From positions 1 to 5,245 of IMG/VR virus record IMGVR_UViG_2695420539_000011: DNA of 5,245 bases. One strand, 5' to 3'. How positions within the stretch are numbered: position 1 is the first letter of the stretch; every line of letters starts with the position of its first letter. The translations under genes and the position numbers were made by a program. The notes below the pieces were generated by a model. It saw only the letters and a program-made list of their open reading frames with translations, did not search any database and had not been told where the DNA came from. Source of the stretch: a virus. Its lineage: Duplodnaviria; Heunggongvirae; Uroviricota; Caudoviricetes. This document shows positions 1,177-3,036 of this stretch, piece by piece.

Positions 1177-1268
1177 TTACGCGGGTTAACAATTCGTGCT
1201 CTTAATAATACCAGGCATATCAGGCTGATGAGCGTAAAAAAACGTTTTACATCAGTAAGATTATTATA

Positions 1269-1288
1269 TACTGTAAATATAAACAGTG
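1269..1288. promoter_or_regulatory. LexA (SOS) box, TACTGTAAATATAAACAGTG, within an AT-rich promoter region upstream of the small-ORF/DinI-like module
   Basis: Perfect CTGT-N8-ACAG core (CTGT 1271-1274, 8-nt AT-rich spacer, ACAG 1283-1286) with flanking TA...TG, matching the E. coli LexA operator consensus TACTG(TA)5CAGTA. Lies about 40 nt upstream of the RBS/ATG at 1319-1331. Exact -35/-10 hexamers could not be assigned unambiguously. Confidence 0.65.
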
Positions 1289-1328
1289 GTTATGTATACA
1301 GTATTGCTTTGGTGTCATAGGAGGAAAG

Positions 1329-1517
1329 ATGCAGGACTATTTTTTGGAGTCTTTGAAGCTCCAGCGCATTGATTTTTTTCTTAAGCTTGTAGCGGCTAGT
1401 GAGTGTAGTGATGAAGAGAAGGGGCTGGCTCTGCAGTGGGTTTCTGAACTGACAGATGAACTCATGGCAAAAATCAGAACCCACGAATACAACCGCTCAA
1501 TGGATGTCATCAGCTGA
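1329..1517 (+). CDS. Small hypothetical protein (62 aa); possibly the N-terminal portion of a 186 Tum-like antirepressor split from the downstream DinI-like ORF
   Basis: ATG at 1329 preceded by a strong Shine-Dalgarno AGGAGG (1319-1324). Stop TGA 1515-1517 overlaps the RBS of the next gene. Sits directly downstream of the LexA box. Function not recognisable from sequence. Confidence 0.45.
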   Translation: MQDYFLESLKLQRIDFFLKLVAASECSDEEKGLALQWVSELTDELMAKIRTHEYNRSMDVIS

Positions 1518-1527
1518 GGTGACTTTT

Positions 1528-1761
1528 ATGCGCATTGAAATAATGATCGATAAAGAGCAGAAGATTAGCCAGTCTACACTGGACGCCCTTGAATCCGAGC
1601 TTTACCGCAATCTGCGCCCCCTGTATCCCAAAACGGTAATTCGTATCCGCAAAGGTAGCTCTAACGGTGTGGAACTTACCGGATTGCAACTGGACGAAGA
1701 AAGAAAACAAGTGATGAAAATTATGCAGAAGGTGTGGGAAGACGACAGCTGGCTGCATTAA
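1528..1761 (+). CDS. DinI-family protein (77 aa; similar to E. coli DinI, to the C-terminal domain of 186 Tum and, I believe, to P2 Orf91)
   Basis: Product MRIEIMIDKEQKISQSTLDALESELYRNL...ERKQVMKIMQKVWEDDSWLH aligns by eye along its length with E. coli DinI (MRIEVTIAKTSPLPAGAIDALAGELSRRI...KQRISEILQETWESADDWF). RBS GAGGTG at 1516-1521, 6 nt before the ATG at 1528. Stop TAA 1759-1761. The track's longer 1456 start was set aside because DinI homology begins exactly at MRIE and there is an RBS in front of 1528. Confidence 0.8.
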   Translation: MRIEIMIDKEQKISQSTLDALESELYRNLRPLYPKTVIRIRKGSSNGVELTGLQLDEERKQVMKIMQKVWEDDSWLH

Positions 1762-1849
1762 GAAACGTTGCTGGCGTCTGAACCTGCTTCTGGCGTCAGC
1801 AAGGTTGAACCGCGAGCCTTGAGAGGCGTTAACCATAAGTAAAAAGACA

Positions 1850-1972: not shown

Positions 1973-2845
1973 ATGAAACGTGGCATTGTAGCTAATCCTA
2001 ATGAAATGAGTTTTCATAGAAATAATAGTACGGTCTATCTTGGGGCAGGTTTAACTGAGCAGGATATTAATTATTTCTGCTTTTACTGGGATGATGTGGT
2101 TATTCTAGATAGTGAAAATATTCACTCGATTGTGCCTAAAGAAAAAGAATTATTAGATAATGGGGTATTACGTAGACCTATTATGAAACATGATGGTATG
2201 CTGAATATCCAAGACTTTCCATTTTTATATACGGAATTTCAGTTGCAGACATTGGATGAATTCAGGAAGAACGAGCCTGCTACTTATTGGCACTTTCATC
2301 AAACAGGGGAAAATTTAATATATGATAAAGAACAGAAAACGGCCCTTCAGTTGAGATTGGAGTTGTTTAATGTTCTGAGAATTCCTGATAAAGATGCTCA
2401 TATAGAAGATATATTACGTTTTAAAGATGATTGTCAGGATGATCTTAATGCGTTACATGAGTACTTAGAAAAACTGTATACTGAAGTCCTTTATTCTAGA
2501 GACCCTAATCTAACGAGGGCTAAAAATTTTTCTTTATTACAAGAGGCTGTAGTTAATCTTGATAAAGCTATCGAAGGGAAATGGAGAAATCCTATCAGAA
2601 TGGGAGTCAAAGCCAATCCAGAAGTAGATGGTGGGCAGGTTATGGAATTTTTAAAACCGTTGTACCATGCTGCTATTGCTGGTTATTCAGGCGGTATTAT
2701 TCCCGGTATGGTTACAGCCTTGGCAACCGCAATTCCAAGTTTTATAAAATTCCAACCAGAATGGGTGGGCTTTAGAGATAAGGGGCCTAAAGAATTAGCT
2801 TATCTTACCAAAGCAACGCATAAGGGGTTGATTAAGAGAGCTTAA
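1973..2845 (+). CDS. Hypothetical protein, 290 aa, AT-rich cargo gene at the tin/old-equivalent position; candidate phage-defence or exclusion protein with a C-terminal hydrophobic (putative transmembrane) segment
   Basis: Long uninterrupted ORF. ATG at 1973 with RBS AAGGAG 5 nt upstream; the track's GTG at 1949 is in frame but lacks an RBS. Stop TAA 2843-2845. Marked drop in GC relative to the flanking phage genes. Hydrophobic, Gly/Ala-rich stretch around residues 227-259 (AAIAGYSGGIIPGMVTALATAIPSFI). I recognise no similarity to any protein family. Confidence 0.7.
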   Translation: MKRGIVANPNEMSFHRNNSTVYLGAGLTEQDINYFCFYWDDVVILDSENIHSIVPKEKELLDNGVLRRPIMKHDGMLNIQDFPFLYTEFQLQTLDEFRKNEPATYWHFHQTGENLIYDKEQKTALQLRLELFNVLRIPDKDAHIEDILRFKDDCQDDLNALHEYLEKLYTEVLYSRDPNLTRAKNFSLLQEAVVNLDKAIEGKWRNPIRMGVKANPEVDGGQVMEFLKPLYHAAIAGYSGGIIPGMVTALATAIPSFIKFQPEWVGFRDKGPKELAYLTKATHKGLIKRA

Positions 2846-3017: not shown

Positions 3018-3036
3018 GGCGTGGCGGGGATACGAG
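3018..3036. other. Putative cos (cohesive end) site of the P2/186 type: GGCGTGGCGGGGATACGAG
   Basis: From memory, the first 13 nt (GGCGTGGCGGGGA) match the 19-nt cohesive end of phage 186 (GGCGTGGCGGGGAAAGCAT) and nearly match P2 (GGCGAGGCGGGGAAAGCAC). Located about 160 bp beyond the end of Q, in the expected orientation and position. The last 6 nt diverge, so exact termini are uncertain. Confidence 0.4.

Follow-up and report, generated by a model that had tools for sequence, protein, structure and literature searches.

The region between positions 1246 and 1806 of the window (the whole 5,245-base stretch of DNA that was analysed) holds, with a probability of roughly 93%, the operon for SOS induction of a Fels-2/186-like prophage, in the usual form with two genes. 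In this reading, a 62-aa Tum-type antirepressor gene (tumA type, hereafter ORF62) is followed by a separate gene for a DinI-like protein (tumB type), and it is the single-chain Tum protein of phage 186, a fusion of the two, that is out of the ordinary. The two-gene arrangement itself is ordinary and already known from the annotation of PSP3, the literature on Fels-2 and PSP3, and the genetics of the prophage DuoHS. An earlier note on this DNA had considered a tum gene frameshifted by prophage decay or sequencing error, translational frameshifting, and a lineage with separate expression of the two domains. The third proposal was borne out by the conserved separate ORFs and by the precedent of PSP3 and Fels-2, and the other two had to be given up on the grounds set out below.

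Genomic setting of the two ORFs

The window covers the right-end/left-end junction of a P2/186-like prophage (Peduoviridae, Fels-2-like), and its features are collected in Table 1. ORF62 and the DinI-like ORF come right after the replication gene A, and the same order was found in 186, PSP3, and Fels-2. The locus thus occupies the position of a Tum-type gene, at the right end of a P2/186-like genome and immediately after gene A. An identical 601-bp stretch is present in E. coli S163-2. The coordinates that the earlier note had given for ORF62, and its finding that the DinI frame is open upstream to 1456, were confirmed, as was a ribosome-binding site of the DinI-like ORF's own. The A5 run that it had placed at 1472-1476 is actually at 1469-1473.

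Table 1. Features of the window, in order of position
Feature	Position	Strand	Basis or remark
Replication gene A, C-terminal 391 codons	1-1176		Pfam Phage_GPA, 5.8e-44
Putative -35 (TTTACA) of the SOS-controlled promoter, counterpart of 186 p95	1246-1251	+	inferred from sequence
LexA (SOS) box TACTGTAAATATAAACAGTG	1269-1288	+	overlaps the putative -10 TACTGT (1269-1274)
Shine-Dalgarno AGGAGG of the 62-aa gene	1319-1324	+	4 nt before ATG 1329; GGAGG kept in relatives
tumA-type gene, predicted 62-aa stand-alone Tum antirepressor	1329-1517	+	ORF call; homology to the N-terminal half of 186 Tum
Shine-Dalgarno GAGGTGA of the DinI-like gene	1516-1522	+	overlaps the upstream TGA stop; 5 nt before ATG 1528
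tumB-type gene, 77-aa DinI-family protein	1528-1761	+	Pfam DinI PF06183, 6.6e-23
Stem-loop after the second gene	1764-1806	+	fold energy -28.3 kcal/mol, z = -2.25; no T-run
DUF6236-family ORF, 290 aa, low GC	1973-2845
cos site	3018-3036
Portal and large-terminase genes	downstream of the cos site	minus

A predicted SOS promoter and a downstream hairpin

Searched with the 20-nt LexA consensus, the window gave a single match, the LexA box (3 mismatches, with 0.01 matches expected by chance), and the pattern CTGT-N8-ACAG also occurred only once, at the same site. The box lies 41 nt upstream of the ATG of ORF62. The same box or a one-mismatch version of it precedes the homologous ORF in nearly all of the 33 related loci described below. 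The same holds for 186, PSP3, Fels-2, ESSI-2, and a Yersinia phage, and in DuoHS of E. coli HS the box is identical to that of the window.

The putative -35 sits 17 nt upstream of TACTGT, and TTTACA or TTCACA is kept at that spacing in most of the relatives, the -35 being conserved in PSP3, Fels-2, ESSI-2, and the Yersinia phage as well; the consensus promoter scan missed it because the -10 is weak. The layout matches that of the annotated p95 promoter of phage 186, in which the -35 is TTCACA and the -10, TACTGT, lies inside the LexA site. Judged from its sequence, the promoter of ORF62 is therefore predicted to be LexA-repressed, with the SOS box over the -10, which is the arrangement of a Tum-type gene.

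The stem-loop behind the second gene is kept in some of the relatives, including ones with a deletion of the DinI gene, in which it adjoins the stop of tumA. In phage 186, the partial terminator t95a lies at the equivalent position. By analogy, the stem-loop of the window may be a partial terminator or an RNA-stabilising hairpin.

ORF62 as a homologue of the N-terminal half of 186 Tum

ORF62, which ends at the TGA at 1515-1517, is under strong purifying selection. Among 30 sequences, dN/dS was 0.085 in its own frame and exceeded 1 in the other two, and the variable sites were distributed 28/17/56 over the three codon positions. The 62-aa protein belongs to no family in Pfam, NCBIfam, or PADLOC, and direct BLASTP gave no alignment with either 186 Tum or PSP3 TumA. 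Since BLASTP found no match, homology to Tum had to rest on profiles and on an intermediate sequence.

The intermediate was the 60-aa stand-alone 'tum protein' of Yersinia phage vB_YenM_06.16-2, which is 46% identical to residues 4-42 of 186 Tum (E = 2e-10) and 35% identical to residues 11-44 of ORF62 (E = 9e-8). Family HMMs were built from 98 ORF62-family and 92 Tum-N-family sequences. Each of them matched the founder of the other family, at 13.9 and 11.8 bits, and these scores were reached by none of 5,000 shuffles, the closest shuffle against the Tum-N HMM coming near to the observed 11.8 bits with 11.6. When the two families were compared by hhalign, columns 3-43 were aligned on columns 3-43 with P = 8e-4, at a probability of 24.5% for a short helical protein. 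In the PHROG collection, 186 Tum matched the family to which ORF62 itself belongs (phrog_698) at 2.4e-5, with positions 7-44 on positions 7-44, and ORF62 matched the Yersinia-type family at 2.4e-8 and the PSP3-TumA-type family at 2.2e-3. Moreover, MAFFT aligned the ORF62 and Tum-N families from residue 1 without gaps, and M1, E7, L20, C26, A34, and E40 were invariant.

AlphaFold2 models the 62-aa protein as a helical hairpin with a pLDDT of 90, in which helices 2-23 and 28-61 are joined by a loop that carries the invariant Cys. When this model was searched against the PDB with Foldseek, generic helical hairpins were the only matches and none had E < 1, so the search is uninformative on the function of the protein. 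A solved-structure search with 186 Tum returned E. coli DinI alone, through the C-terminal half, and the N-terminal domain was unmatched.

It may be asked whether ORF62 is an unrelated small gene that happens to stand upstream of a phage dinI homologue, its similarity to Tum-N being a fortuitous product of helical composition. Helical hairpins readily give spurious similarity, the profile scores are low (12-14 bits), BLASTP found no direct match to 186 Tum or PSP3 TumA, and the Foldseek matches are generic, all of which such a reading would explain. However, the Yersinia sequence is significantly similar to both sides, independent PHROG profiles cross-match co-linearly, and the shuffled sequences did not reach the observed scores. 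The position after gene A and the layout of the LexA-box promoter are also those of tum, and deletion of a near-identical gene abolishes SOS induction, which is the Tum phenotype. We therefore regard a chance resemblance as very unlikely. On the evidence of the profiles and the intermediate sequence, ORF62 and the N-terminal antirepressor half (1-61) of 186 Tum are homologous, though diverged. The earlier note had named a lack of similarity between ORF62 and the Tum N-terminal domain as a ground for rejecting a Tum locus, and the profiles and the Yersinia bridge show that this ground does not apply. The alignment to 186 Tum that it had called for succeeded for both ORFs in that both are homologous to the phage protein, that of ORF62 through profiles and the bridge, and came to nothing as far as a direct BLASTP of ORF62 is concerned.

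Deletion of a near-identical gene in DuoHS

The phenotype referred to above comes from the Phollow study (PMC12055606; preprint PMC11195241), in which an in-frame Δtum in DuoHS, a P2-like prophage of E. coli HS, abolished induction by mitomycin C. In the Δtum primers of the preprint PMC11195241, a sequence ending in ATAGGAGGAAAGATG is joined directly to TGAGGTGACTTTTATGCGCATTG. Each of the two occurs once in the window as an exact match, at 1317-1331 and at 1515-1537, respectively, and the end-points of the deletion correspond to window positions 1331 and 1515. Based on the primer positions, the experimentally defined 'tum' of DuoHS is the 62-aa ORF, and the deletion spared the DinI-like gene.

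The DuoHS tum product has 61 of its 62 residues as in the window, and the LexA box, the Shine-Dalgarno sequence, the stop, and the DinI junction are identical; the differences are T51S and a few upstream bases. By analogy with this 61/62-identical gene, which is needed for mitomycin C induction, the gene of the window would be expected to be required for SOS induction of its own prophage. DuoHS has a CI repressor that is 33% identical to 186 CI over the full length (E = 7e-38). The presence of a 186-type CI supports carrying the mechanism of 186 Tum over to the DuoHS protein, whose binding to CI would follow from homology.

The DinI-like gene and the junction between the two ORFs

The 77-aa product of the second gene belongs to the DinI family. 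It scored 81.3 bits against a Pfam cut-off of 24.2 and covered profile positions 1-63 of 63. With the NCBIfam equivalog for chromosomal DinI, it scored 42.7, below the cut-off of 111, indicating that the protein is a member of the family and not an orthologue of host DinI. It is 41% identical to residues 71-145 of 186 Tum and 78% identical to PSP3 TumB, and it matches phrog_189.

There are 10 nt between the TGA of ORF62 and the ATG at 1528. The frame of the DinI-like gene is open from 1456, giving an ORF of 101 aa (1456-1761) behind a TGA at 1450-1452, and the earlier note had taken the resulting 62 nt as an overlap of two genes. The upstream extension amounts to 25 stop-free codons, for which the chance expectation is approximately 30% ((61/64)^25). 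The ATG at 1456 has no Shine-Dalgarno sequence, and the extension in the relatives is often merely 1-5 codons long. Within the overlapping stretch, the substitutions gave a pS of 0.75 and a pN of 0.15 in the frame of ORF62, and a pS of 0.29 and a pN of 0.25 in the DinI frame. This pattern fits the frame of ORF62 and not the DinI frame, showing that the C-terminal 20 codons of ORF62 are constrained in their own frame. The '62-nt overlap' is an open-frame extension and no gene overlap, and the junction is an ordinary operon junction in which the stop lies inside the next Shine-Dalgarno sequence. A G-rich Shine-Dalgarno sequence stands between the stop and the ATG in every relative that retains the DinI gene.

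A hairpin at 1506-1523, picked up by the terminator scan, was considered as a frameshift or attenuation element at the junction and was rejected (z = -0.85 versus shuffled sequences; sequence not conserved).

Conservation of the two-gene form

With the single 62-aa protein as a query, 33 loci from different enterobacterial species were collected, at 71-100% aa identity. The genera in this set were Escherichia, Citrobacter, Klebsiella, Enterobacter, Raoultella, Kluyvera, Serratia, Pantoea, Erwinia, Tatumella, and others. ORF62 was intact and always stop-terminated in 32 of the 33 loci; the remaining one (Siccibacter) was frameshifted. An intact DinI gene followed 9-12 nt downstream in 16 loci, where its frame relative to ORF62 was 0 in five, +1 in four, and +2 in seven. 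In six further loci, the DinI gene was disrupted (truncated, frameshifted, or carrying a nonsense codon), and in ten it was absent, and ORF62 was kept in both groups. Three loci (L017, L027, and L040) have a clean deletion of the DinI gene that puts the downstream stem-loop against the stop of ORF62.

The gene pair was also found in 67-76 phage records, among them Fels-2, SopEΦ, RE2010, and Cartapus as well as numerous Klebsiella phages, and it is annotated as two genes in Fels-2, Cartapus, and vB_EcoM-813R9. Among complete E. coli genomes, 1,125 of 5,426 (approximately 20%) carry it. When 25 of the E. coli rows were sampled, the genes were separate in all 25; in 24 of these, they were annotated as 'hypothetical protein' and 'DinI-like family protein', and the other one was a partial match with the hypothetical protein only. 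The earlier note had stated that homologous prophages consistently encoding the same two ORFs with a conserved overlap would speak against its split-tum locus. The first part of this was observed, in that the homologues consistently have two separate ORFs; as to the second part, neither the overlap nor the relative frame is conserved.

These data bear directly on programmed +1 ribosomal frameshifting, which, acting within 1456-1514 or at the TGA, would add a fused Tum-DinI protein to the two separate products. The DinI frame of the window is indeed +1 to the upstream ORF and open across the junction, and in phage 186 a short product is made alongside the fused one. However, the +1 relation is not kept among the relatives, some of which have frame 0 with an in-frame stop and others +1 or +2, and many of which lack the DinI gene. 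Since the relative frame varies, there is nothing conserved for programmed frameshifting to exploit. In addition, a canonical slippery site is missing, the hairpin at the junction has neither a convincing z-score (-0.85) nor a conserved sequence, and the DinI-like gene has its own Shine-Dalgarno sequence and ATG. The locus thus lacks the properties of the programmed frameshift genes of the prfB or dnaX type, and we judge that the translational frameshifting raised by the earlier note has hardly any probability left.

Least probable of all, and close to negligible, is a single tum gene broken by a one-base frameshift through prophage decay, or seemingly broken by a homopolymer sequencing error: a one-base deletion in 1456-1514 would give a product near the 146 aa of 186 Tum (about 143 aa, so that the fusion calculated earlier at about 144 aa was essentially right), and the A5 run lies within these positions, but the stop-terminated 62-codon ORF is shared by 32 of the 33 loci from different species, by some 70 phage records, and by roughly 1,100 complete E. 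coli genomes, the downstream gene stands in any of the three frames, the last 20 codons are constrained in the ORF's own frame, a near-identical gene is functional in DuoHS, and no fused representative was found in the subfamily. Because the DinI gene occurs in all three relative frames, no single indel links these loci to a fused ancestor. A gene found in many genera and in about a fifth of the complete E. coli genomes, with a dN/dS of 0.085, does not behave as a frameshift pseudogene. Two separately expressed genes, with a stand-alone Tum-type antirepressor in the first place, remain the reading that we adopt.

Fused and stand-alone forms of Tum

The first protein search with the 186 Tum N-terminal part listed mostly truncated or stand-alone proteins, without the full 146-aa protein. 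The counts of fused and split forms were taken from an exhaustive search of cluster representatives together with a tblastn of the phage collection. A profile of both subfamilies, run against 1.84 billion cluster representatives, gave 151 clusters at E ≤ 0.001, nearly all of 44-105 aa. A DinI domain was present in only 3 of the 150 listed cluster representatives, all three from the 186 subfamily, and there was no fused representative of the ORF62 subfamily among the matching cluster representatives. In the phage collection, the fused 146-aa form was found by tblastn in 28 records, all at least 92% identical to 186 Tum, and the split forms were diverse. The 186 subfamily also has stand-alone versions of 63-67 aa.

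The window does not encode a single-chain Tum of the 186 type; ORF62 terminates with its own TGA, and the DinI-like gene lies in another frame with its own Shine-Dalgarno sequence and ATG. The rarity of the fusion, the stand-alone versions within the 186 subfamily, and the AAGGAGG and GTG retained in 186 suggest that the 186 gene arose secondarily, when a tumA-tumB pair was fused. The DinI partner was disrupted or absent in 16 of the 32 loci with an intact antirepressor gene. Extending this, we lean towards the view that Tum was originally a stand-alone hairpin of about 60 aa, which is still by far the prevailing form, that the 146-aa Tum of 186 is a recent and narrowly distributed fusion, and that the DinI part is dispensable and has been lost repeatedly.

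Proposed mechanism and consequences for annotation

By analogy with 186, DNA damage would lead to RecA-stimulated cleavage of LexA and thereby derepress the LexA-repressed promoter in front of ORF62. The 62-aa hairpin would then bind the 186-type CI of the prophage and stop it from binding its operators, as expected of a homologue of 186 Tum; the repressor gene of this prophage is located beyond the limits of the window. With CI off the operators, lytic transcription would start and the prophage would switch to lytic growth. The DinI-like protein would be an accessory modulator of RecA and the SOS response and probably dispensable, which fits its frequent loss.

As a discovery, this locus carries little weight, the split tum having been previously annotated, described, and genetically tested. 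The practical value lies in annotation. The 62-aa 'hypothetical protein' should be labelled as the probable SOS antirepressor to which a very common class of P2-like prophages owes its inducibility, and not as a pseudogene fragment. The DinI-like gene next to it often carries the name 'Tum' and does not encode the antirepressor. Since no Pfam or NCBIfam model exists, over 1,000 E. coli genomes list the antirepressor as a 'hypothetical protein'. Correct labelling bears on the prediction of SOS-inducibility of P2-like prophages in E. coli, Klebsiella, and Salmonella.

Comparison with known systems

Besides DuoHS, the closest known system is Fels-2 of Salmonella Typhimurium LT2 (STM2728 and STM2726.1), whose 62-aa protein is 98.4% identical to that of the window and which has the same two-gene layout after gpA. 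The next gene downstream differs, being a 732-nt ORF in Fels-2 and the DUF6236 ORF in the window. A passage in Lemire et al. (2011) describes the tum genes of Fels-2 and PSP3 as split in two halves, citing Bunny et al. (2002) and a personal communication from G. Christie.

PSP3 shares the architecture, with a LexA box, an antirepressor gene for about 60 aa, and a gene for a 77-aa DinI-like protein. Its GenBank record describes tumA as 'similar to 5' end 186 tum; UV induction of prophage' and tumB as 'similar to dinI and 3' end of 186 tum'. However, PSP3 TumA belongs to another subfamily (phrog_1993) and is connected with ORF62 by the profile match of 2.2e-3 alone, and tumA and tumB of PSP3 are in the same frame, separated by the stop and 3 nt.

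The tum gene of phage 186 has the same genomic position and a LexA-controlled promoter of the p95 type, and both domains of its product are homologous to the ORFs of the window. It differs in that a single polypeptide is made instead of two, and the N-terminal domains are only about 20% identical. The phage record confirmed the statement of the earlier note that 186 Tum has 146 aa and internal starts; one of these, a GTG behind AAGGAGG, yields the DinI-like part alone. According to the account of Shearwin et al. (1998) given in a passage of Lemire et al. (2011), 186 Tum binds CI and blocks its binding to the operators.

[quoted passage not shown] In these operons, dinI precedes the antirepressor gene, neither the antirepressors nor the repressors are related in sequence to those considered here, and the phages are lambdoid. 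Non-polar deletions of dinI in the Gifsy prophages had no significant effect on induction (Lemire et al., 2011).

Loss of the DinI-like gene beside an intact antirepressor gene

Among the species-level relatives (33 loci from different species), roughly half had a disrupted or lost DinI-like gene, and the 62-aa antirepressor gene was intact in these loci. The lesions comprised nonsense codons, frameshifts, truncations, and clean deletions, and the loci counted as DinI-defective were L012, L013, L017, L022, L023, L026, L027, L031-L037, L039, and L040. The decay or loss of the DinI-like gene next to an intact antirepressor gene points to a dispensable DinI partner. As listed in the table, Tum-type small ORFs were also present in two P2-like phages, in which no annotated DinI gene adjoined the ORF; in ESSI2_ev129, the ORF was directly followed by a convergent transcriptional regulator gene.

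Features in the window and in two related phages
Feature	Location	Strand	Details
ATACAGT motif	window 1296-1302		about 10 nt 3' of the LexA box in L009-L040
Stem-loop	window 1764-1806	+	directly 3' of the stop codon of the DinI-like gene; fold energy -28.3 kcal/mol, z = -2.25
290-aa ORF, DUF6236 family	window 1973-2845	+	6.4e-21; phrog_23128
cos site	window 3018-3036		GGCGTGGCGGGGATACGAG
Tum-type ORF, 60 aa	L004 (Yersinia phage vB_YenM_06.16-2) 1177-1359		LexA box upstream
Tum-type ORF, 70 aa	L005 (ESSI2_ev129) 1201-1413		LexA box upstream

In public annotation, the antirepressor is named "hypothetical protein" by RefSeq in the sampled E. coli genomes and lacks a model in both Pfam and NCBIfam. 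In several phage records, "tum" or "SOS operon TUM protein" is applied to the DinI-like gene, not to the antirepressor. The name "Levan regulatory protein", given to one protein cluster, appears to be spurious.

Elements bordering the tum operon

The ATACAGT motif was kept in most relatives (L009-L040) and may represent either a degenerate second LexA half-site or some other element close to the promoter. The stem-loop at the other end of the operon, which has no T-run, was kept in some relatives with paired changes included, and in three loci without the DinI gene (L017, L027, and L040) it stood directly 3' of the antirepressor stop. Its position equals that of the partial terminator t95a of phage 186.

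The variable slot and the cos site

The cos site agrees with the 19-nt cohesive end of 186 (GGCGTGGCGGGGAAAGCAT) in the first 13 bases, after which GCGCGC follows in both. Since the site is inside the window, the joined phage genome ends lie within it, as in a prophage or a circular form. The region that separates cos from the tum operon is a variable slot, occupied here by the DUF6236 ORF, which has a GC content of 0.34 against approximately 0.52 in its flanks. This ORF had no match in PADLOC or NCBIfam, and it is likely a cargo ("moron") gene. The same slot holds orf97 in 186, a Hypoth_Ymh-domain protein in vB_EcoM-813R9, and two small ORFs in Cartapus.
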